Made by a program: the position numbers and the translations under genes. Positions 4,403 to 64,000 of a stretch of 64,000 nucleotides of DNA are shown one piece after another. The DNA is from an uncultured Alphaproteobacteria bacterium (GTDB lineage Bacteria; Pseudomonadota; Alphaproteobacteria; DATDPM01), in the NCBI GenBank assembly GCA_963841995.1, contig CAWJEX010000003.1:154081-218080 (forward strand). Direction: 5' to 3'. The stretch's first letter is position 1, and each line of letters begins with the position of its first letter. The notes below the pieces were generated by a model that was not told the origin of the DNA, ran no database searches, and saw only the letters and a list, made by a program, of their open reading frames with translations.

Positions 4403-5788
4403 ATGGATTTGTGGCGCACCAAAGCGCTGAACGCCGACGTTGTTCACGAGGGGCAGCTTCGGCGGGTGTTGGGCCCGGTCGATCTCACCGTGCTCGGCAT
4501 CGGGTGCATCATCGGCGCCGGCATTTTCGTTCTCACCGGACACGCGGCGGCGACGTCCGCCGGCCCGGGCATCGTTCTGTCCTATGTGATGTCGGGCTTG
4601 GCCTGCGCCTTCAGCGCGCTGGCCTATGCCGAGCTTGCCTCGGCGATCGGCGGCTGCGGCAGCGCCTATGGCTATGCCTATGCCGGCCTCGGCGAAATCA
4701 TGGCCTGGATCATCGGCTGGGATTTGCTTTTGGAATACGGCGTATCGGTGCCCACCGTGGCCTTGGGTTGGGCGAGCTATATGAACGACGCACTGACCAC
4801 GATGGGGCTGCCGATTCCCGACTCTCTCCTCCACAGCCCTTACGACCACGCCCAGGCCGGCATGGTGAATTTGCCCGCGGCGCTCATCATTCTGGCGCTG
4901 AGCGTCTTGCTCTGCATCGGAGTCAAGGTAAGCGCGCATTTCAACGCGCTGATGGTGACGGTGAAGCTCTGCGTGCTCGCCCTGTTCATCGCGATTGCGG
5001 TATTCGACGTCAATCCGGCGAATTGGCACCCTTTCATGCCCTTCGGCTGGGGCGGGGTGATGCAGGGTGCGGCCCTGATTTTCTTCGCCTATATCGGATT
5101 CGACGCGGTGTCGACCGCCGCCGAAGAAGCGCGCAATCCCCAGCGCGATCTGCCGATCGGAATTCTGGCCTCGCTCGCGATATGCACGGTGCTTTACATC
5201 GTCGTCTCGGGATTGCTGACCGGCATCGTTCCCTATTCGACGCTCAATGTGGCAAGCCCGGTGGCTGATGCGCTGATCCGCGCCGGGCACCGGATCGCGG
5301 GGGCTGCGATCGCGGTCGGAGCGATCGCGGGGCTCACGACCGTCATGCTCGTTCTCTATTACGGATTGACGCGAATCTTTTTGGCGATCGCCCGCGACGG
5401 ATTGCTGCCGCCGGTTTTTTCCGCGGTCAACAAAACAACGAAAACACCGATCCGCGTCATTCTGGTGAGCGGCGTGATCATGGCGTTGATCGCCGGCTTC
5501 ACCCCCATCGAGGGCGTGGCGCAGCTGGTGAATATCGGAACGCTCGCCGCCTTTGCATTGGTTTGCGCCGGCGTCATCGTGCTGCGCGCGACCGAGCCCG
5601 ACCTGCCTCGGCCGTTCAAGACCCCGTGGTCGCCGCTGATCCCGGTTCTCGGGATCGTCTTTTGTCTCTATCTGATCTACAGCCTGCCGGTCGTAACCTG
5701 GCTGCGCTTCGTGATCTGGATGGCGGTCGGCTTTGTCGTCTATTTCGGCTATTCGCATCGGAACAGCCTGCTCGCTCGGCAGTCCTAG
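4403..5788 (+). CDS. APC-family amino acid permease
   Basis: The 461-aa product has ~12 TM helices and the usual N-terminal 'LGPVDLTVLGIGCIIGAGIFVLTG' motif of amino-acid/polyamine transporters. Its TAG stop lies inside the MITE inverted repeat. Confidence 0.85.
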   Translation: MDLWRTKALNADVVHEGQLRRVLGPVDLTVLGIGCIIGAGIFVLTGHAAATSAGPGIVLSYVMSGLACAFSALAYAELASAIGGCGSAYGYAYAGLGEIMAWIIGWDLLLEYGVSVPTVALGWASYMNDALTTMGLPIPDSLLHSPYDHAQAGMVNLPAALIILALSVLLCIGVKVSAHFNALMVTVKLCVLALFIAIAVFDVNPANWHPFMPFGWGGVMQGAALIFFAYIGFDAVSTAAEEARNPQRDLPIGILASLAICTVLYIVVSGLLTGIVPYSTLNVASPVADALIRAGHRIAGAAIAVGAIAGLTTVMLVLYYGLTRIFLAIARDGLLPPVFSAVNKTTKTPIRVILVSGVIMALIAGFTPIEGVAQLVNIGTLAAFALVCAGVIVLRATEPDLPRPFKTPWSPLIPVLGIVFCLYLIYSLPVVTWLRFVIWMAVGFVVYFGYSHRNSLLARQS

Positions 5789-6013
5789 AGCATGATCTTG
5801 TCAGTTTGAATTGGCTGCGTTGCGCTTTTGGTGCGGCGATCCGCCAGGCGCGCCAAGCCCGCCAAGGCACAACCCCAAGGGCCCGGGTCTTTTGCCGCCG
5901 CGGGTTCGTCGAAGCGCTCGCCCGTAGTCCCTGCTACGCGCTTCGCGCTTCTCCTGCCCGGGGCGCAAAATACCTCCGGTGCAGCCGGTTCCAACTGACA
6001 AGATCATGCTCTA
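5786..6013 (+). mobile_element. MITE copy 1 (228 bp), with perfect 21-bp TIRs TAGAGCATGATCTTGTCAGTT and a GC-rich palindromic core
   Basis: The left end is tagagcatgatcttgtcagtt and the right end aactgacaagatcatgctcta. It is 228 bp, like copy 4 at 62045-62272. A TA dinucleotide sits at both element boundaries. Confidence 0.75.
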
Positions 6014-6055
6014 AGCCGCTATACGACGTCCGTCGGTCGCTTCATTGTCCGACCG

Positions 6056-6732
6056 TTAGATTTATCGAATACCGCCGTTCCGCCGCCTGCGGGAGAACAC
6101 GAGCCAGACGCCGCCAACTCCCAAAAAGAGCAGCCCCAACAGCGCGACCGGCCCAAGATTTCGTCTCCGGCGCGATGCGTTCGGCCACCGCGCTCGCAAC
6201 GGCGCCGGAAAACAGGATCGTGGGGGCCCAGAGGAAGGCCCACGCAACATTCGCCAGCCAAAAGCGCCCGCTGCATCCGCCTGATGCCGGCAGCCAGCGG
6301 GATCACCGCCCGCACCGGTCCGAAGAACCGTCCGATGAAGACGCTTTTCTGGCCATGCCGTTTGAAAAATGCGATCCCGCGCGGGATCAGCTCCGAATAT
6401 TTTGTGAACGGCCAAACGCGGTGCACCTCGTGACCGAATTGCCAGCCAATCCAGTAAGAAATGCCGTCGCCGAGGATGGCCCCGACGACGACGGCGATCA
6501 GAACTGGCCACACGGGCAGTATGCCCCGCGGCAACAGCGCTCCCGCCGCCAGCAGGATCACCGTGCCGGGGATCTGCAGACTGAGGAAGGCAAGCGATTT
6601 GCCAAACGCCGCCGCCAAGATGATCAGCGCCGCCCAAGCCGAGTACGTCGCGATGAAATCGGCCACGACATGAGTGGTGTGCTCCACGATTTGCCAGAAT
6701 AAACCAAGCGAATGGCGGCGACACCATCGCAT
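6056..6732 (-). CDS. DedA/SNARE-associated family membrane protein, with an apparent 1-nt frameshift at ~6266-6270
   Basis: The N-terminal ~150 aa are typical DedA ('GDGISYWIGWQFG', 'FGPVRAVIPLAAGI'). After 'RRMQR' the family continuation 'RFWLANVAWAFLWAPTILFSGAVAS...' is read in the adjacent frame and ends at 6056. The shift sits in a GGG run. Confidence 0.7.
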
Positions 6733-6872
6733 TTCGAGATTGCGTGTCGAATTTACAGGCGGCTTTGTCGTCTATTTAGGCTATTCGCATCGGAACAGCC
6801 TGCTCGCTCGGGCGGGCCAGCGCGGCCGATTTTCGAGTTGACGCGCGGCCCGCCCGGATAGCACCGCGGAAC

Positions 6873-11774: not shown

Positions 11775-12317
11775 ATGGGGAAAATCCGCCTCAATGCGCG
11801 CGCCGCGGTCGGCTTGGCCGCCCTGCTCTCGATGCTGTCGGCCCAAGCCCGGGCGGCGAATAGTTGCGCCTTGCCGGACGAGCAGGCCGCGCTCGATACC
11901 CGGGTTCTTCAAACCGAATTGATCGTCGCCGCTCTGTCCTGCGGCACGAGCAGCCAATACAACGGCTTCGTGCAGAAATTCGAATCGGAGCTAGTCGCTC
12001 TCGGCGGCGTCTTCCGCAATTATTTTACCCGGATCTACGGACTGAACGGCGAGGATCGGATGGATCGGACCGTCACGCGACTGGCCAATATTGCGGAAGT
12101 CCGGAGCATGGGGCTGGGGCCGCAATATTGCGATTACGAAGCCCAGGTGTTCGCAACGCTCCAGGGAGTCGAGCCGGCGCAATTGGCGGCATTCGCCGCC
12201 GAGAATCCTTATGTAGGCGATCACGATATCCGGCCGTGCCCGGTAGCGGTTCGGGCGCAGAGCCCGAACGCGCCGGTCGCCGCAGCGCCCGACGCCGCGT
12301 CAGCCGATAAACCGTAG
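11775..12317 (+). CDS. hypothetical secreted protein
   Basis: It has a signal peptide ('AALLSMLSAQARA') and Cys pairs. No family was recognised. Confidence 0.45.
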   Translation: MGKIRLNARAAVGLAALLSMLSAQARAANSCALPDEQAALDTRVLQTELIVAALSCGTSSQYNGFVQKFESELVALGGVFRNYFTRIYGLNGEDRMDRTVTRLANIAEVRSMGLGPQYCDYEAQVFATLQGVEPAQLAAFAAENPYVGDHDIRPCPVAVRAQSPNAPVAAAPDAASADKP

Positions 12318-12341
12318 CGCCCGATCGTTCTTGAACGGAGT

Positions 12342-13095
12342 CTAGAGCCCCGTATTGGGATGGGATTCGAAGAGGCGAAAGGTCAGACGCTTCTTGCGCG
12401 GGCCATCGCCCTTTTGCCGGCGAACGAAGCGCCAAACGGCTGCCGGCGGAACATTCGAGCCAAATTCGTTCCGCGAGCTTTGCCGAAAGCCCGAGACGTG
12501 CGAGCAGGCGCTCCGGCACCGGCGAAACCGGGCCATAGGTGAACTGAATGAAAATTCCGTCGGCGTCCATAAGGTCGAAACATTGACGCAACAAAACGGT
12601 CTGCATGCGAGGCTTCATATTCAGCAACGGCAGGCCGGAAACGACCGCCGCGACTTTCTTGATCCCCGCCGCGCGAATCAAATGCTTTGCCCGCGTCGCG
12701 TCGCCGTGAATGATGTGGGACCCGGGAAAACGCTGGGCCAGCAAGCGGTAAAGGCCTTCGTCCCGCTCGACGACCACGAGATCGCGCGGGGCTATTCCTG
12801 AATTCAAAAGCGCCCGGGTAATGGATTCCGTCCCGCCGCCCAATTCGACGACAACGCCTTGCGGTTTGAATCGCAGGATTTCGGGGCGCAGGATTTCGGG
12901 ACCAAGCGCCGTCGCCATGGCCTTTGCCAGCGCCGCCCCGCTCGGAACGACGGCGCCGATACGCAACGGATTGCGCAACCACTTTCCGAACAGCATTTTT
13001 TCGTCTTCGACGTCCATCGCTTTCCTCGGCACCGCCAATGCAGTGTTCGCGAATTCAGGAGTGCTTTTTACCACCGCCGAGGCTTGGTGCGCCAC
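12342..13095 (-). CDS. class I SAM-dependent methyltransferase, phospholipid N-methyltransferase (PmtA)-like, with an apparent frameshift at ~12450-12458
   Basis: It has a GTG start. 'VVPSGAALAKAMA...VVELGGGTESITRALL...VVSGLPLLNMKP...FIQFTYGPVSPV' resembles Rhodobacter-type PmtA. The conserved C-terminus 'NVPPAAVWRFVRR' is in the adjacent frame and ends at 12342. The long ORF down to 12073 is read-through. Confidence 0.6.
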
Positions 13096-13105
13096 CTCAA
13101 TGCAT

Positions 13106-13419
13106 TAGAGCATGATCTTGTCAGTTGGAACCGGCTGCACCGGCGGTATTTTGCGCCGCGGGCAGGAGAAGCGCGAAGCGCGTAGCAGGGACTACGGGCG
13201 AGCGCTTCGACGAACCCGCGGCGGCAAAAGACCCGGGCCCTTGGGGTTGCGCCTTGGCGGGCGCCCGCGGCGTTGCGCCGTTCGGCCGATGCCCCACATC
13301 GCCCCCCGCGCTTTGCGCGCAAACGTTTGCCGGCAAGGCCGGCGGGCTTGGCGCGTCTGGCGGATCGCCGCACCAAAGGCGCAACGCAGCCGATTTCGAA
13401 CCGACAAGATCGTGCTCTA
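13106..13419 (-). mobile_element. MITE copy 2 (314 bp, inverted orientation, ~90-bp internal insertion, degenerate right TIR)
   Basis: It begins tagagcatgatcttgtcagtt and ends ccgacaagatcgtgctcta. The core is the reverse complement of the core in copies 1 and 4. Confidence 0.7.
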
Positions 13420-13561
13420 GGTAACGGATTGGGGCGCCAAGCTGAGAACGGGTCTGATCGCCGCCAAACCCACACCCCCTCGACGCCGATAAGTTGACCG
13501 CAAAATTGCCGCGGAATTGCGGGCAAGGTCCGCAAAGGTGTACTGTTCCGGCCAGCCCGAT

Positions 13562-14047
13562 ATGCCATCATTCGACATCGTATCCAAGACCGACGTCCAC
13601 GAAGTGGACAACGCCCTCGCCGGGGTTACCCGCGAGATCGGCCAGCGCTTCGATTTCAAAGGTTCGAAATGCACGCTGACCCGTGCCGATAACACGATCA
13701 CGATCCTGGCCGATGACGATATGAAGCTCCGCCAGATCCAGGAGCTTGTGAAAGGCTATATGACGCGGCGCAAGCTTTCGGCGGGAGCGCTCGATTTCCA
13801 GGAGCCGGAGCGAGCCGCCGGGAACGCTTTGCGCCAGACGGTGGTTATCAAGCAAGGCGTTGCCGCTGACCTGGCGAAAAGCATCGTCAAAGAAATCAAG
13901 GACAGCAAGCTGAAGGTCCAAGCCGCCATTCAAGGCGACGAGCTTCGGATTTCCGGCAAGAAAATCGACGATTTGCAGGCGGCGATCGCCCTCGTGCGCG
14001 GGCTCAAGATCGAGCAGCCGTTGCAATTCGTGAATATGCGGAGCTAA
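13562..14047 (+). CDS. yajQ: YajQ-family (UPF0234) nucleotide/c-di-GMP-binding protein
   Basis: 'MPSFDIVSKTDVHEVDNAL...FDFKGSK' is colinear with YajQ over its full length. Confidence 0.85.
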   Translation: MPSFDIVSKTDVHEVDNALAGVTREIGQRFDFKGSKCTLTRADNTITILADDDMKLRQIQELVKGYMTRRKLSAGALDFQEPERAAGNALRQTVVIKQGVAADLAKSIVKEIKDSKLKVQAAIQGDELRISGKKIDDLQAAIALVRGLKIEQPLQFVNMRS

Positions 14048-17310: not shown

Positions 17311-17652
17311 ATGAAATCGAAAGACCTTCGAAGGCTAGCTGTGACTCATCGTTTTGCATTCATCGCCGCATCCCCGATCGGTCTTGCTTGCGCGCTACCG
17401 TCGATGGCGCTTGCGGAAGGCTGCGGCGATCCCTGGCGGGATGGCCACGACGTTTACGCGGACCGGCGGGACATCGTCCAGGATGAAGCGCGGCTGCGTT
17501 ATGACGAGTGGACCGGCAACTGGATTGCCGTCCGCCGCGATATTGAAGATCTCCGCGCCGATCACCGCGACGTCGCCCATGACGCCCGCGATTTGCATCG
17601 GGATTTCGCCGACCGCCGGGATTTTAGCCGCGGCGGATACGACGAACGCTGA
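17311..17652 (+). CDS. hypothetical secreted protein with RD-rich ~11-aa repeats
   Basis: It has a signal peptide and repeats of the form 'RRDIVQDEARLRYD / RRDIEDLRADHRD / ARDLHRDFADRRD'. Confidence 0.4.
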   Translation: MKSKDLRRLAVTHRFAFIAASPIGLACALPSMALAEGCGDPWRDGHDVYADRRDIVQDEARLRYDEWTGNWIAVRRDIEDLRADHRDVAHDARDLHRDFADRRDFSRGGYDER

Positions 17653-17685
17653 ACCCTTTGCGGTCAACCCTCCCTGACCGCACCT

Positions 17686-17745
17686 TCGGCCGGCTTCGAT
17701 CCGCCCCCCAATTCGAAGCCGGCCGAATTTATTTTCACTCGGTTT
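17686..17745 (+). terminator. Rho-independent terminator
   Basis: A 12-bp perfect stem ggccggcttcga...tcgaagccggcc is followed by gaatttattttc. Confidence 0.55.
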
Positions 17746-17755
17746 CGGCGCCCTC

Positions 17756-18028
17756 TAGAGCCTGATCTTGTCAGTTGGAACCGGCCGCGCCGGCGATATT
17801 TTGCGCCGCGGGCAGGAGAAGCCCGTAGCAGGGACTACGGGCGAGCGCTTCGACGAATCCCCGGCCGGCAAAAGACCGCCGCCCCTTGGGTTGCGCCTTA
17901 ATGGGCACCCGCGGCGTTGCGCCAAGCCCGCCAGCAAAGCCGGCGGGCTTGGCGCACTTGGCGCGCTTGGCGGATCGCCGCGCCAAAAGCGCAACGCAGC
18001 CGATTCGAACTGACAAAATCAGGCTCTA
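17756..18028 (-). mobile_element. MITE copy 3 (273 bp, inverted orientation, TIR variant TAGAGCCTGATCTTGTCAGTT)
   Basis: The ends are tagagcctgatcttgtcagtt and aactgacaaaatcaggctcta. The core is homologous to copy 2. Confidence 0.7.
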
Positions 18029-18424
18029 ATGGGACAAGGGTGACTCGCTCAAACTCTGGCTCGTACTCGAACCGCCGCCAAACCCCGATCCGCTGCCGCT
18101 TCCCGAAAGCGGCGCGGCGCTTAGACTTTGGCTAGTGCTCGAATTCCCACTGAATCCCGCCGACGGAGTCGAGCCGGGCTCGCCGGCGCCGCGCAGCGAA
18201 TCGCTCGTGCCGCCGTTGTCGAGTTCGCTGGGCGGACCGCTATCAAGGCTGGGATTGGACAAGGGTGCATCGCCGGGATTCGTCGGCGCAAAAGTGTCGC
18301 CGGTGTTCGATGTGCCGTCTTGCGCCAGAACCATCGGCGAAGCCGTGTCCGCTATCGCAGGCATTTGCGACAATAGCCCGGCGAGCACCAGGGGCAGCGC
18401 CGCCGCTGTGAATATCGATTTCAT
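18026..18424 (-). CDS. secreted Ser/Gly-rich low-complexity repeat protein
   Basis: It has a signal peptide and tandem units 'SGFGGGSSTSQSLSESPLS / AGFSGNSSTSQSLSAAPLS'. Its 3' end touches the MITE. Confidence 0.4.
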   Translation of the reverse strand: MKSIFTAAALPLVLAGLLSQMPAIADTASPMVLAQDGTSNTGDTFAPTNPGDAPLSNPSLDSGPPSELDNGGTSDSLRGAGEPGSTPSAGFSGNSSTSQSLSAAPLSGSGSGSGFGGGSSTSQSLSESPLSH

Positions 18425-30942: not shown

Positions 30943-31018
30943 TGGCGTCCCCTAGGGGAGTCGAACCCCTGTTCCCGCCGTGAGAGGGCGGTGTCCTGGG
31001 CCACTAGACGAAGGGGAC
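30943..31018 (-). tRNA. tRNA-Glu (anticodon CUC)
   Basis: The reverse complement is a 76-nt cloverleaf with a 3' CCA: GTCCCCTTCGTCTAGTGGCCCAGGACACCGCCCTCTCACGGCGGGAACAGGGGTTCGACTCCCCTAGGGGACGCCA. The anticodon stem is CCGCC/GGCGG and the loop CTCTCAC. Confidence 0.9.
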
Positions 31019-39184: not shown

Positions 39185-40348
39185 TTAAAGTCCTGGTTCA
39201 GTGGTCTCAAACGCCCAATCCAGCCAGGCCGGAAGGGCTGAGATATCCGCCAATTCCACGGTTCCGCCGGTCCAAACCCGAAGCCCCGGCGGGGCCGTCC
39301 GGTAGGCATTGATGTCGAAGGCAACACCTTCGGTCTCCAAGAGGCTCGAAATCGCTTTGGCCCGGGCGCGCTTTTGGTCTTCGCCCAACCCCTTCAGCCT
39401 TGAGCCTTCAAGACACATGGAGACAGGTGTTGTGGGCCGGATTTCCGGACGTTGCGGCAGCTGGGCGACCCAATCGCATTGGCTGATCCATTGGTCCAGG
39501 ACCGCGCGATTGGCCTTGGCCCTTTCGATCATCCCGCGCAAACCGCCGATCGATTCGATCCAGGCGAGCGAGAACAGTGCGTCCTCGACGCAAAGCATCG
39601 ACGGCGTGTTGATGACGCCGCCTTCCCACAACATCGGATCGAGCTGGTTGTGTTTTTTCAGCCGGAACAGCTTCGGCACCGGCCAGGCCGGCGTGTAACC
39701 CAGTAATCGTTCGATGGCACGCGGACCCAAGACCAGCATCCCGTGCTGAGCTTCGCCGCCCATCGCCTTCTGCCAGGAAAATGTCGCGGCATCGAGAAGG
39801 TCCCAGGGAATATCCGCCGCGAACACCGCCGCCGTCGCATCGCAGATCGTCAGGCCCTGCCGGGTGTCCGGAATCCAATCGCCGCCGGGAACGCAAACAC
39901 CGGCGGTCGTGCCGGTCCAGGGAAAAACCAGATCCCGCGCCGGATCCCAGCGCGACAGATCGGGCATTTCGCCATAGCAGGATTTGAGCACCCGCACATC
40001 GGGAAGCCGGAGCTCGTCGATGGCGTCCCGCGCCCATTCCTGGCCGAAATAGTCGAAAGCGAGAACGTCCAGCCCGCGCGGCCCCAGCAGATTCCACATC
40101 GCGGCTTCGATGGCGCCGGTGTCGGAGCCGGGCAGAATCGCGATCCGGTGGCTTTCCGGAATCCCGAGCAGCGCGCGGGCTTTCGTCAGCAGCTCCTGCA
40201 GCCGCGCCCGTCCCGCTTCCGAGCGGTGATAGCGCCCGGTCAGCGCCGCGGAAAGCTTGGATGCCTCCCAGCCCGGCGGCTTGGCACAAGGCCCGGAAGC
40301 GAAATGCGGATTTGCCGGCCGGACGGCGGGTTTCGGAGGGTGCGTCAT
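39185..40348 (-). CDS. serC: phosphoserine aminotransferase (SerC, short archaeal/alphaproteobacterial type)
   Basis: 'NPHFASGPCAKPPGW...SHRS..G...' matches the short-form SerC N-terminus. A class-V aminotransferase fold follows. Confidence 0.8.
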   Translation of the reverse strand: MTHPPKPAVRPANPHFASGPCAKPPGWEASKLSAALTGRYHRSEAGRARLQELLTKARALLGIPESHRIAILPGSDTGAIEAAMWNLLGPRGLDVLAFDYFGQEWARDAIDELRLPDVRVLKSCYGEMPDLSRWDPARDLVFPWTGTTAGVCVPGGDWIPDTRQGLTICDATAAVFAADIPWDLLDAATFSWQKAMGGEAQHGMLVLGPRAIERLLGYTPAWPVPKLFRLKKHNQLDPMLWEGGVINTPSMLCVEDALFSLAWIESIGGLRGMIERAKANRAVLDQWISQCDWVAQLPQRPEIRPTTPVSMCLEGSRLKGLGEDQKRARAKAISSLLETEGVAFDINAYRTAPPGLRVWTGGTVELADISALPAWLDWAFETTEPGL

Positions 40349-40533
40349 GGGGGGAATAACTTCGATGCGGGCGGTCAGAATATCAATGCCCATTCGAGCG
40401 CGGTAGGCGTGAGAATCCGGATCGTGGGCCGTGGATCAGTTTCGGCGCGATTGTGCGGCAACCGGCACGGTTTCAGAGTAAAATTTACAAGACTTCTCAA
40501 TTGTATCGTATTTCCAACGATGAGCGGGTTGCC

Positions 40534-41100
40534 ATGGCGCGTCTCCCGAAATCACGCAGGCCGGTCGCAATGAAAGATCTGCCCTTGTCCAAGGTCTACC
40601 AGCTGCTCGAACCGGGCCCGGTGGTTCTGCTGACCACCGCCCGTAAGGGCCGCGCCAATGTCATGACGATGTCCTGGCATATGATGGTCGACTTCGAGCC
40701 GCCGCTGGTCGCCTGCGTGGTCAGCGGCGCCAATCACAGCTTTGCCGCGTTGCAGGCGACCGGGGAGTGTGTGATCGCGATTCCGGCGCGGAAGCTGGCG
40801 CCGATTGTGGTCAACGTCGGCAACTCATCGGGTCGCGACATCGATAAGTTCGACGCGTTCGGTCTGACCCCGGCGCCGGCCGAGCGCGTGGCGCCGCCTC
40901 TGGTGGCAGAGTGTTTCGCCAATCTCGAATGCAAGGTGACGGACCCGCGCTTCGTCAACAAATACAATCTCTTCATCCTTGAGGTGCTTAAGGCCTGGAT
41001 CGATCCGGCGCAGAAGAATCCCAAAACCATCCACCATCACGGCTACGGCACGTTCGTCGTGGATGGCGAGACGATCAAGCTGAAATCCAAGATGCCGTGA
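40534..41100 (+). CDS. flavin reductase-like (FMN-binding split-barrel) family protein
   Basis: 'VVLLTTARKGRANVMTMSWHMMVDFEPPLVACVV' is the signature of the flavin reductase-like domain. Confidence 0.7.
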   Translation: MARLPKSRRPVAMKDLPLSKVYQLLEPGPVVLLTTARKGRANVMTMSWHMMVDFEPPLVACVVSGANHSFAALQATGECVIAIPARKLAPIVVNVGNSSGRDIDKFDAFGLTPAPAERVAPPLVAECFANLECKVTDPRFVNKYNLFILEVLKAWIDPAQKNPKTIHHHGYGTFVVDGETIKLKSKMP

Positions 41101-41359
41101 TGCGCGCCGTCAAAGACTTCGGGCCTCGCAAGGCGGATGAGCCTGCGCTTCGAACAAGGCCCGGAGGCGAAATGCGGATTAGCCGGCCGGACGGCGGGTT
41201 TTGGTGGAGTGGTCATGCAGCGAAGATATCTGAGTGATAGTCAGATTATCACCGCGTTTATGATAGCTGTAGGTGTCAGAGAGATGACGGATTTGACCAA
41301 AGGTGGACCTAGCCAACTCAACGTCTTAACGCAATTGAAACGCAACCTAACAACGAAAC

Positions 41360-41997: not shown

Positions 41998-42079
41998 ATT
42001 ACGCCAAATCTCAAACCGCCCCACCGCCAGACCTCGATCCCGCTTGACCCACCCTTCCTCCCGTTCCACCATGCCGGTT

Positions 42080-44085
<2,006 letters not shown>

Positions 44086-60624: not shown

Positions 60625-60820
60625 TTCATGAATGGAGCGGCCGTTGTAGCATGAACGTCAGAAGCAGGTGGAGCCGCGGGGCCGTTGGCCATTGTAACCC
60701 TTGGAGCCTGCCTCAGCAGGTGGGCGCCATATGTCCAGAACCAAGGTTCCAGCAGGGACGGCTCCCTTTGTAGAAGTGTTGGCCCCGGGGAAAACTGAGG
60801 CCTGACGCACCGCGCAGCCC
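60625..60820 (-). ncRNA. ssrS: 6S RNA (SsrS), inferred. Ends are approximate.
   Basis: A non-coding gap lies between zapA and ygfA, the conserved position of ssrS (it is cotranscribed with ygfA in E. coli). The region has long-range complementary arms (cgtcag...ctgacg, gcctcag...ctgaggc, ccccggggcc...ggccccgcgg) typical of the 6S closing stems. The only ORF there (60658..60861) has an implausible composition. Confidence 0.5.
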
Positions 60821-60835
60821 CACCCGTATTTGACT

Positions 60836-61630: not shown

Positions 61631-62047
61631 ATGGCCCGCGCAATTGTCATTCATTCCTTGGAACACGCCCGCGCTGCGCTCGCCGCTGCCGTGCACCTCC
61701 GCGTCGCGGTCACGCTATGGAGCGCGGAGGGAGCGGCCGGCAATGCCGGGCCGTTGTGGTTCGTCGAGTTGATCAAAGCGGCGGAAGAAGAATTTCCGTC
61801 AGCGACGTTCGCGGCGGTTCTCGATTGCGGCGATGCGCCGGGATACGCGCTCGCGGCTTTGCGCGCCGGGTGCCGTGCGATTCGTTTTAACGGCAAGCCT
61901 GCCGTCGCCGCCAAGATCAAGGCGATCGCCCGTCAATATGGCGCTGTGCTGCATACGGGAAAGCCGGCGAATTCCGGCAAGGCCCTCGATCTGGCCGGCA
62001 AATCCGATCCCCTCACCGCTTGCCGCCAATGGCTGAGCAAGCGCTAG
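61631..62047 (+). CDS. hypothetical protein; its TAG stop is supplied by the MITE TIR
   Basis: The 138-aa ORF ends '...SKR' + tag, where tag is the first 3 nt of the MITE. Confidence 0.4.
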   Translation: MARAIVIHSLEHARAALAAAVHLRVAVTLWSAEGAAGNAGPLWFVELIKAAEEEFPSATFAAVLDCGDAPGYALAALRAGCRAIRFNGKPAVAAKIKAIARQYGAVLHTGKPANSGKALDLAGKSDPLTACRQWLSKR

Positions 62048-62272
62048 AGCATGATCTTGTCACTTCGAATCGACTGCGTTGCGCCTTTGGTGCGGCGATC
62101 CGCTAGGCGCGCCAAGCCCGCCACGGCGCAACCCAAAGGGCCCGGGTCTTTTGCCGCCGCGGGTTCGTCGGAGCGCTCGCCCGTAGTCCCTGCTACGCGC
62201 TTCGCGCTTCTCCTGCCCGCGGCGCAAAATACCGCCGGTGCAGCCGGTTCCAACTGACAAGATCATGCTCTA
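62045..62272 (+). mobile_element. MITE copy 4 (228 bp, same orientation as copy 1 and ~95% identical to it)
   Basis: tagagcatgatcttgtcac...gttccaactgacaagatcatgctcta. Confidence 0.75.
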
Positions 62273-62319
62273 ATGGAGGCCCTCGTTTTGCCATCGCCCT
62301 GGTCGCAATCGCCTCGGAA

Positions 62320-62964
62320 TTGATTTTGTCCCGTCTTTATCTCATCACTCCCGAAAGACTCGATCTGGCGGATTTTGCCGATCCGCTTTCCGCGGCCCTC
62401 GATGCCGGCGAGGTGGCCGCCGTGCAGCTTCGCCTCAAGAACTACGATGACAAGTTTATCCGCCATGCCGTCTCGATTCTCCGTCCCATCGTCCAGAAAC
62501 AAAATGCCGCGTTCATCTTGAACGACCGCGCCGATCTTGCCGCCGAGACCGGATGCGACGGCGTTCATATCGGCCAGCAGGATGGCTCCTATGCCGAGGC
62601 GCGCGACGCGGTCGGGCCGGATTCGATCGTCGGCGTCACTTGTCACGACTCGCGCCATCTGGCGATCGAGGCCGCCGAACAGGGAGCCGATTACGTCGCT
62701 TTCGGCGCCTTTTTCCCGACCCAGACCAAGATCGCCAGCGGCCATCCGACACCGGATATCCTGGAATGGTGGACAGACGTGATGGTGGTGCCTTGCGTGG
62801 CCATCGGCGGCATCACGCCGGAAAATGTGGCGCAGGTGATCGCCGCCGATTTCATCGCCGTCTGCTCGGGCATCTGGAATCATCCCCAAGGTCCCGCTGC
62901 GGCGGTGAAAGCTTACCTTTCGGCCATCGAGCGCGCCGTCCACGATCAAGGCATCACCGGCTAG
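62320..62964 (+). CDS. thiE: thiamine-phosphate synthase ThiE
   Basis: 'LYLITPE...AVQLRLKN...VGVTCHDS...GGITPENV' follows the ThiE fold. Confidence 0.85.
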   Translation: MILSRLYLITPERLDLADFADPLSAALDAGEVAAVQLRLKNYDDKFIRHAVSILRPIVQKQNAAFILNDRADLAAETGCDGVHIGQQDGSYAEARDAVGPDSIVGVTCHDSRHLAIEAAEQGADYVAFGAFFPTQTKIASGHPTPDILEWWTDVMVVPCVAIGGITPENVAQVIAADFIAVCSGIWNHPQGPAAAVKAYLSAIERAVHDQGITG

Positions 62965-64000
62965 GACCGGCCACCGGCGCCCACAGCACGTCTTCGATCG
63001 AATTCGCACCGGTTGCCAGCATCACCAAGCGATCGAAGCCCAGTGCCACACCGGCACAGTCCGCCAATCCGCGATCCAGCGCCGCCAGGAAATCCGCATC
63101 CGCGGGATATTGGACGCCGTAAAGGCGCTGCTTGATCTCCATGTCACGCGCAAAGCGCCGGCGATGCTCGGCGGCATCGGTCAGTTCGGCGCAGCCATTG
63201 GCCAGCTCGACGCCGCAAACATAAATCTCGAACCGGTCGGCCAGGCGCGGATCGCGTGCCTTCGCTTTCGCCAGCGCGGAAAGGCAGAGCGGATAGCCGT
63301 AAAGCACGGTCGGGCGGGCTTTTCCCAAATTGGGTTCGATGCGCGCGAGCAAAACTCTAAAGAATACGTCTTCGAACCGGTCGCGATCCTCGCATTTGAT
63401 CCCGATGCGCCGCGCCTCGGCCCTGATCGGCGCCGGATCGGGATCGTCGCCCCCATCGCCCGGGGGGCCGAGCGTGGAGAGGAGATTGATCCCGGCATCC
63501 CGCGTAAACGCGTCGACGACGCTGAGGCGCTCCCATTCGGCAAAGGGATCGCAAGTCGCGCCTTTGCGCTGAAACAATTTCGCGCCGGCTGCGGTTGCCG
63601 CGGCGCGGACGACACCCGCGCAATCTTCGACGATCCCCGCAATGCCGGCGCCCGCGCGATACCATTCAAGCATGGTGAATTCGGGATGATGGAGATCGGA
63701 GCGCTCGCCGTCCCGGAATGCGTGGGCGAGTTGAAACAGGCGGGGCATTCCGGCAACGATGAGTTTTTTCATCGCGAATTCCGGCGAGGTATGAAGATAG
63801 AGCGCGCTTTGCCCGTTTAGGGGCCCGCCGAAGGGTTCGTGAAGCGCCGTCGCAAGCGCCTTCAAATGCGGCTCCAGGCCCGGCGAAACCTGAAGCGCCG
63901 GGGTTTCAACTTCGACGAAGGCTTGGCTGTCGAAATAGCTCCGCGCCGCGCGCGCAATCCGGGCGCGGGCCTCCAATCGAAGGCGCTTTTCGGCAAAGCG
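62954..64000 (-). CDS. epmA: EF-P beta-lysine ligase EpmA/GenX (lysyl-tRNA synthetase class-II paralogue), with the 5' end beyond the window
   Basis: 'VEVETPAL...LHTSPEFAMKKLIVAG...FRDGERSDLHHPEFTMLEWY' are class II motifs 1-2 of the GenX type. The N-terminal ~40 aa expected for the family are missing, so the gene continues past 64000. Confidence 0.75.
   Translation of the reverse strand, partial: RFAEKRLRLEARARIARAARSYFDSQAFVEVETPALQVSPGLEPHLKALATALHEPFGGPLNGQSALYLHTSPEFAMKKLIVAGMPRLFQLAHAFRDGERSDLHHPEFTMLEWYRAGAGIAGIVEDCAGVVRAAATAAGAKLFQRKGATCDPFAEWERLSVVDAFTRDAGINLLSTLGPPGDGGDDPDPAPIRAEARRIGIKCEDRDRFEDVFFRVLLARIEPNLGKARPTVLYGYPLCLSALAKAKARDPRLADRFEIYVCGVELANGCAELTDAAEHRRRFARDMEIKQRLYGVQYPADADFLAALDRGLADCAGVALGFDRLVMLATGANSIEDVLWAPVAGPSR

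Follow-up and report, generated by a model that had tools for sequence, protein, structure and literature searches.

An apparently undescribed MITE family of uncultured Alphaproteobacteria, very probably of IS630/Tc1-mariner type, whose ends often double as stop codons of neighbouring genes

A 64,000-nucleotide stretch of the genome of an uncultured Alphaproteobacteria bacterium (contig CAWJEX010000003.1, positions 154,081 to 218,080), called here the window and the reference for all coordinates without a locus label, carries four copies of a GC-rich repeat. An earlier reading of the window, made from the sequence alone, had described the repeats as a family of miniature transposable elements bounded by inverted repeats (MITEs), with flanking TAs as in MITEs of IS630/Tc1-mariner type. 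We regard it as very probable that they are indeed MITE copies of the IS630/Tc1-mariner superfamily, presumably mobilised in trans by a transposase that an IS630-family insertion sequence (IS) encodes. The element is small and non-coding, is bounded by terminal inverted repeats (TIRs), exists in dispersed copies, and displays a presence/absence polymorphism accompanied by target duplication, all hallmarks of a MITE. Its superfamily is indicated by duplication of a TA dinucleotide and by a TIR that matches an IS encoding a helix-turn-helix (HTH) plus DDE transposase. Three observations support the reading as an IS630-type MITE: an empty site in relatives, which exposes the TA duplication, a complete IS on metagenome contig L014 with the same terminus at one end, and the Y-TA-R context of all 12 MITE sites and 4 related IS sites.

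Four copies in the window

The copies were confirmed at the coordinates and on the strands given by the sequence-only reading:

5786-6013, + strand: MITE copy 1, 228-bp short form; TA duplications at 5786-5787 and 6012-6013
5788-5806 and 5993-6011: the 19-nt TIRs of copy 1
13106-13419, - strand: MITE copy 2, 314-bp long form that also contains modules X and Y and has the opposite orientation to copy 1
17756-18028, - strand: MITE copy 3, 273 bp, the most diverged in the window (about 89% identical to the others)
62045-62272, + strand: MITE copy 4, 228-bp short form; element proper 62047-62270 (224 bp), TA duplicated on either side

With up to 3 mismatches allowed, the terminal 21-mer TAGAGCATGATCTTGTCAGTT has eight matches in the window, which mark both ends of all four copies; dinucleotide shuffles (n=100) give none. 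Neither sensitive blastn nor an nhmmer profile, for which 11 full copies were used, revealed further copies or fragments in the window. Copies 1 and 4, of the same length (228 bp) and once called nearly identical, proved to be 95% identical. Copies 2 and 3 are inverted and longer, as had been noted; their extra length, read earlier as insertions, is better seen as the usual state, since forms of 272-315 bp dominate in relatives.

Termini and internal architecture

All four copies (228, 314, 273 and 228 bp) have in common a terminus that reads TA followed by GAGCATGATCTTGTCAGTT. The TA, which makes up the first two bases of the 21-mer, belongs to the target duplication, leaving a TIR proper of 19 nt. 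The earlier description of 21-bp perfect TIRs holds for copy 1 alone, the only copy with two perfect 21-mers; the remaining copies have 1-2 mismatches per terminus. Imperfect TIR pairing extends to about 33-34 nt, with arms that are 88-91% complementary. In copy 3, the TIRs have changed in step, A to C at position 7 in one and T to G at its partner (17762 and 18022), so that TIR complementarity is retained.

The interior is GC-rich (~70% GC) and modular, within an element of 224 to about 311 bp without TA. Its middle contains a ~42-nt module whose side and orientation relative to a ~30-nt module differ between copies. In copy 2 (13262-13340) and in loci L010 and L016, the ~42-nt module, which is hairpin-rich (GCGCTTTGCGCGCAAACGTTTGCCGGCAA..CCGGCGGG), is to the left of the GGGCGATGTGGGGCATCGGCC module; in L005 and L007 it lies to the right, with its orientation reversed.

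An empty site reveals the TA duplication

The locus of copy 4 is flanked by two genes that allow the site to be found in relatives:

61631-62047, + strand: gene for a conserved 138-aa protein; its stop TAG is the TA plus the G of copy 4
62320-62964, + strand: thiamine-phosphate synthase gene, 3' of copy 4; the conserved neighbour that defines the empty site

The 138-aa product belongs to a conserved family in which every close homolog ends at the same residue (...WLSKR). The empty site was sought in contigs encoding homologs 91% and 82% identical to this product, where the thiamine-phosphate synthase gene also lies downstream, across a gap of merely 36-67 bp. In these relatives the element is absent and the junction reads ...GCAAGCGC-TA-ATGG... 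(GCGC-TA-ATGG), as opposed to ...GCAAGCGC-TA-[GAGCATG...CATGCTC, 224 bp]-TA-ATGG... in the window. The junctions were compared by eye, MAFFT having put the gap in the wrong place. The site is empty, with a single TA, in L017, L018 and L019. Comparison of the empty and filled junctions thus defines an element proper of 224 bp, a duplicated TA, and a TIR made of the 19 nt that follow it. TA target duplication, which the sequence-only reading could only call compatible with the TAs flanking each copy, is demonstrated directly at copy 4, and the empty-site comparison that it had proposed as a check gives a clear answer. The original stop codon at this locus, TAA in both relatives for which the empty-site DNA was examined, has become TAG in the window; the protein is unchanged.

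Across the family, TA is present at 21 of the 24 termini of full copies, and the three exceptions, none of which lies within a stop codon, are one base off. A duplication of 3 or 4 bp would leave imperfect repeats in every copy, and a 2-bp TA fits all copies as well as the empty site. An ORF (open reading frame) at 62263-63009 (- strand), which ends in the copy 4 TIR, was considered and dismissed as an antisense shadow of the thiamine-phosphate synthase gene.

An IS630-family transposase partner

A cognate IS630-family IS should have ends that start like those of the element (GAGCATGATC...). The sequence-only reading had suggested a search for such a full-length element, and one was found on the TIR-bearing metagenome contig L014, which holds a complete 1,052-bp IS (73-1124) with TA on both flanks. 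Its two overlapping ORFs match HTH_Tnp_IS630/HTH_23 and DDE_3 (E = 8e-34). Where they overlap there is a slippery run of eight A (A8), the usual frameshift layout, and the transposase ORF extends to the terminal TAG of the IS. The IS end at the 3' side of the transposase is identical to the MITE terminus at 22/22 positions, with patchy likeness to about 45 nt; at the opposite end, the first 11/11 positions are identical, followed by 20/29. The nearest annotated relatives of the L014 transposase (66-72% aa identity) are named 'IS630 family transposase' and come from Rhizobiales, namely Shinella, Methylocystis, Sinorhizobium and Rhizobium plasmids. Two of these Rhizobiales ISs were read and have ends of the form TA followed by GAG..., a subterminal GAATCGG motif, and a C-TA-G site.

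The same partner bears on two other possible origins. The IS427/IS1031-type groups of the IS5 family have GAG... ends, short TA or TNA duplications and a Y-TA-R target consensus, and the element, with termini that start GAGC, a short duplication and a Y-TA-R target, would resemble them in each respect. However, the only IS found with the same terminus encodes HTH_Tnp_IS630 and DDE_3, not DDE_Tnp_1, the annotated relatives bear the IS630 name, and the 2-bp TA duplication accounts for all copies and the empty site; an IS5-family origin was dropped on the domains of the partner transposase and is highly improbable. Even less probable is a palindromic repeat of the repetitive extragenic palindrome (REP)/BIME type, spread by a RAYT (an IS200/IS605-type tyrosine transposase). 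Its intergenic position, high GC content, hairpin-forming capacity and mosaic interior would suit such a repeat, but REPs are short single palindromes (tens of nucleotides) that make no target duplication, whereas this element has long TIRs common to an IS630-family IS, a TA duplication and a Y-TA-R target, and no Y1 transposase was seen near any copy.

Several points weigh against the assignment to an IS630-mobilised MITE. By tblastn, the 64-kb window contains no transposase gene. The L014 IS resides on a 1.2-kb soil-metagenome contig without host assignment and matches the MITE perfectly at one end only; no similarity between the two extends past about 45 nt, so that descent of the MITE from it by internal deletion would be conjectural. 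No two copies of the family are identical, and thus there is no sign of current activity. The make-up of the stop-codon statistic given below belongs with these points.

Two further sets of contigs were examined as partners. L013 (414-1537), put forward as a second IS630-type partner with 64 bp in common with the left end of the MITE, was withdrawn upon comparison with L022-L024, which places the end of its IS at 1478. It is instead an IS630-family IS (414-1478) with its own, different TIRs, inserted in the internal C-TA-G of a MITE (GATCCGC-TA-GGCG), of which only the left 59-62 bp persist; the unrelated sequence on the other flank reflects either a deletion or a chimeric contig. L022-L024, close relatives of the L013 transposase, have TIRs that are related but different, making them no better partner than L014.

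Target preference and residence in stop codons

The genes next to the other three copies are the following:

4403-5788, + strand: amino-acid permease gene (Pfam AA_permease); stop TAG at 5786-5788
18026-18424, - strand: 132-aa ORF with a signal-peptide-like N-terminus, a gene call in three assemblies
Reverse complement of 18026-18028, - strand: stop of the 132-aa ORF, which is the terminal TAG of copy 3
12073-13095, - strand: methyltransferase-like ORF, on one side of copy 2
13538-14047, + strand: DUF520 gene, on the other side of copy 2

The reconstructed targets read Y-TA-R at 12/12 MITE loci with readable flanks and at 4/4 ISs, a context shared by 15.7% of the 1,207 TA sites in the window. 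Half of these target sites (8/16) lie outside stop codons, and the Y-TA-R preference is therefore not merely a by-product of stop codons. It agrees with the preference of IS630 for TA in CTAG, as reported by the title of a 1991 paper by Tenzen and Ohtsubo that PMC2170065 cites.

With G as the first base of the TIR, both ends of an element read TAG in the inward direction. This terminal TA plus G is the stop codon of a real gene at nine of the 13 independent loci. In the window, the earlier description of all copies as intergenic and placed right after gene ends fails for copy 2, which sits in the divergent intergenic (promoter) region between the methyltransferase-like ORF and the DUF520 gene, and has to be sharpened for copies 1, 3 and 4, which share the stop codon of the adjacent gene: the permease, the signal-peptide ORF and the 138-aa protein, respectively. 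Elsewhere, the overlapped genes encode a LeuA-like synthase, OMP decarboxylase (OMPdecase), CbtB (with a Pfam match to the last profile position), DUF4202, SHOCT and a lipoprotein-like ORF. Support for the stop-overlap genes comes from Pfam, from homologs or from independent gene calling. Of the Y-TA-R sites that fall either between genes or in stop codons, at most 25% belong to stop codons. This gives a rough P of about 1e-3 for at least 9/13, a statistic that depends on a home-made gene caller and a set of 13 loci ascertained by one exact 21-mer that includes the TA.

With a G-first TIR and a duplicated TA, insertion into a TAA or TAG stop rebuilds the stop in place and leaves the protein unaltered, probably the reason for the prevalence of stop-codon overlap among surviving copies. 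Where the TA has decayed (to TG, GA and AA, in three copies), the copy is always one of the four outside stop codons, a distribution that fits selection keeping the TAG as a stop.

A bolder possibility is that the element, together with the IS630-family clade whose ends read TA followed by GAG..., is adapted to stop codons as a strategy of target choice, as opposed to surviving there passively. We consider this idea speculative, with the odds against it. If it were true, any TAA or TAG stop would be a safe landing pad, rebuilt as TAG through the Y-TA-R target and the G-first TIR, and in a 62% GC genome stop codons would be the main refuge, even reusable hot spots. One locus gives a hint of such site reuse: the same permease-stop TA is occupied by the 228-bp copy 1 in the window and by an inverted 314-bp element in a sister species (L007 4494-4807; L007 is a MAG, or metagenome-assembled genome, with 91.5% nt identity). 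The two occupants represent either independent hot-spot insertions or a single insertion that was later inverted and shortened by deletion in place.

A 44-bp derivative consisting of the two TIRs alone is found at L002 4301-4344, between the LeuA-like gene's stop and the start codon (ATG) of the gene that follows; its position implies that the original junction was an overlapping TAATG.

A possibly polymorphic segment around copy 1

Copy 1 lies within a segment framed by a 52-nt direct repeat (5728-5779 and 6760-6811, 98% identical), a duplicate of the amino-acid permease gene's 3' end. MITE copy 1 and a VTT-domain gene (6019-6687, - strand) lie in the ~980 bp that separate the two repeat units. 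This segment is missing in the sister lineage L029 (92% nt identity), where the permease ends in ...ARAG*, and in Logan contig L030 (99.96% identical), where the permease has 498 aa and is fused to the downstream tail. Either a polymorphic insertion/deletion via the repeats or an assembly collapse would account for the difference.

Coding capacity, RNA fold and possible function

The element is non-coding. Its internal ORFs, dismissed as repeat artefacts by the sequence-only reading, have no Pfam match, are related to only 4 clusters among 5.8 billion proteins, and have frames broken by gaps of 1, 7, 42, 44 and 131 columns, not all multiples of three; that earlier judgement stands.

As RNA, the whole element is predicted to fold at -131.9 kcal/mol (z = -9.6 versus shuffles), and the consensus fold of 11 copies features a predicted 34-bp terminal stem. 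The core alone (5820-5979) has predicted z-scores of -1.9 and -1.6 on the two strands, only slightly better than shuffles, a correction to the long hairpin formerly ascribed to the GC-rich core; the strength of the whole-element fold comes mainly from pairing of the TIRs and subterminal sequence. Across the 11 copies, six pairs have double changes, and the overall covariation term is unfavourable (+3.66), which makes no case for a selected RNA structure.

These folds are relevant to the view that the repeats are a conserved structured RNA gene or cis-regulatory RNA instead of a mobile element. A strong predicted fold and a few apparently compensatory pairs speak for it. Yet no copy has an Rfam match at the gathering threshold (copy 2 has none even at E<=1), the neighbours are unrelated, the element occurs in both orientations, and its length ranges from 44 to 315 bp. 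The orthologous locus, moreover, precisely lacks the element and retains one TA, contradicting the scenario under which the sequence-only reading would have had to be abandoned; a structured RNA is thus very hard to reconcile with the data.

More credible, though still unlikely, is that MITEs by origin have been co-opted as terminators or as stability hairpins at mRNA 3' ends, a role for which the sequence-only reading had seen potential. Most copies are found immediately 3' of a gene, RNA transcribed across a copy would contain the predicted 34-bp terminal stem, and an inner hairpin (GAAGCGC...GCGCTTC) has a C-G to G-C double change in 2/11 copies. Against this stand the unfavourable covariation term, the ordinary fold of the core, and the relatives with the empty site, which manage without the element. 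Inside copies 1, 2 and 4 there is no stem-plus-T-run terminator, and copy 3 contains one weak 5-bp match. Nor is there an orientation preference: the upstream gene reads into the left end at five loci and into the right end at three. Copy 2, L004 and L009 are upstream of genes. Lastly, a perfect GC-rich hairpin followed by TTTATTTT occurs at 17685-17745, just outside copy 3, between the convergent genes 17404-17652 (+) and 18026-18424 (-). It was not picked up by the consensus terminator scan, and it looks like a native terminator; copy 3 is inserted between the stop codon and this pre-existing hairpin and T-run. We find no evidence of a host function for the element, and a long hairpin in a 3' untranslated region, as the model folds would have it, could still influence the mRNA.

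Distribution and history

A scan for the exact TIR in one genome per species (185,579 species) returned 8 loci, in only two MAGs, both labelled 'Alphaproteobacteria bacterium'. Over 4.5 kb, one of these MAGs (JBGOXX01) shares about 91.5% identity with the window. One protein of the window is identical in an NCBI MAG that bears the same label. Seven contigs were recovered by scanning metagenomes for the TIR. End-to-end alignment joined the four window copies, dispersed over 64 kb beside unrelated genes, with 9 further loci in related MAGs and metagenomes, giving the 13 independent loci. The element has no blastn match in PLSDB plasmids, and its TIR string has none in the full-text papers searched. 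Together with the Rfam result, these searches agree with the earlier judgement that the family looks undescribed; it is real and rare, and restricted to a small number of MAGs from uncultured Alphaproteobacteria.

Compared over 215 shared columns, the copies have identities of 85-96%. Their divergence of 4-15% and the lack of any identical pair indicate that the family is old. Lengths in relatives are mostly 272-315 bp, and comparison of the sequences makes deletion the probable origin of the 228-bp form. Both 228-bp copies have exactly the same deletion boundaries, which implies that a deleted master transposed. Length variants arose by internal deletion and rearrangement of old copies.

A public MAG contig from the same population, L027, stops 4 nt into copy 3 (18022-18028). 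The element thus breaks short-read assemblies, and its copy numbers in MAGs are too low as a result.

Proposed mechanism

IS630-family elements duplicate a TA target, encode an HTH plus DDE transposase, and move by cut-and-paste (PMC2170065), and the RUP repeat provides a precedent for a bacterial MITE mobilised by an IS630 element (PMC2229807). By analogy with the family, the DDE transposase of an IS630-family IS with the same ends would act in trans on the MITE, its N-terminal HTH domain binding the TIRs. The enzyme would then excise the element and paste it into a TA, preferably within 5'-Y-TA-R-3', with duplication of the TA. Where the target is the TA of a TAA or TAG stop, the stop would be rebuilt as TAG and the protein would stay the same. 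Old copies would subsequently decay to length variants through internal deletion and rearrangement.

Comparison with known systems

We know of no transposase partner for the Correia elements of Neisseria (CREE/NEMIS), whereas the present element has one of IS630 type. Correia elements also have other TIR sequences, and IHF sites, promoter elements and RNase III processing sites are Correia features. The two, of unrelated sequence, are alike in architecture, both being TA-flanked MITEs with long TIRs and length variants generated by internal deletion (PMC2229807). Correia elements are co-transcribed with neighbouring genes (PMC2229807).

Among described systems, the best analogue is the pair of RUP (repeat unit of pneumococcus) and IS630-Spn1, by which RUP is thought to be mobilised (PMC2229807). 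Both RUP and the present element are non-coding, have TIRs that match an IS630-family IS, insert at TA, and have TIRs that pair in the transcript (PMC2229807; PMC3049150). RUP is AT-rich, 107 bp long and present in about 100 copies in Firmicutes, whereas this element is 228-315 bp long, ~70% GC and modular inside, belongs to uncultured Alphaproteobacteria, and does not resemble RUP in sequence. RUP has been proposed to favour IS elements, in contrast to the Y-TA-R preference and the survival at stop codons seen here.

With the IS630 family (IS630, ISY100 and the Rhizobiales elements), the element shares the TA duplication, a TIR straight after the TA, and a CTAG-type target; its partner IS encodes the HTH and DDE transposase, and the Rhizobiales ISs share the terminal GAG and the subterminal GAATCGG. 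Unlike these ISs, it encodes nothing and has a quarter of their length, and only its terminal 22-45 nt resemble the nearest IS.

The habit of residing in stop codons follows from the TA duplication and the G-initial TIR, and has precedent. The pneumococcal BOX repeat encodes the stop in 36/58 overlapping coding sequences without clear protein truncation (PMC3049150), and its enrichment 3' of coding sequences was interpreted as insertion tolerance (PMC3049150). BOX is a different modular repeat, not of TA/IS630 type, whereas this element rebuilds the stop by means of the duplicated TA and the first G of its TIR.

Other features of the window

A 78-nt direct repeat unrelated to the MITE (40279-40356 and 41147-41224, 83% identical) surrounds the gene at 40570-41100, with a weaker third match at 41118-41172. 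Three features scored above the Rfam gathering score:

30946-31018, - strand: tRNA
42076-42209, + strand: TPP riboswitch, upstream of the gene at 42265-44085
60667-60823, - strand: 6S RNA

Significance

For annotation, the family should be masked, as spurious ORFs of 60-100 aa arise from the element; it also breaks MAG contigs and supplies the annotated stop codons of real genes. With this finding, the IS630-type MITEs gain a member from an uncultured, GC-rich lineage of Alphaproteobacteria, very probably one with the textbook IS630/Tc1-mariner mechanism. It also provides a clean example of how a TA-duplicating element with a G-first TIR can be seated in a stop codon and leave the protein unchanged.

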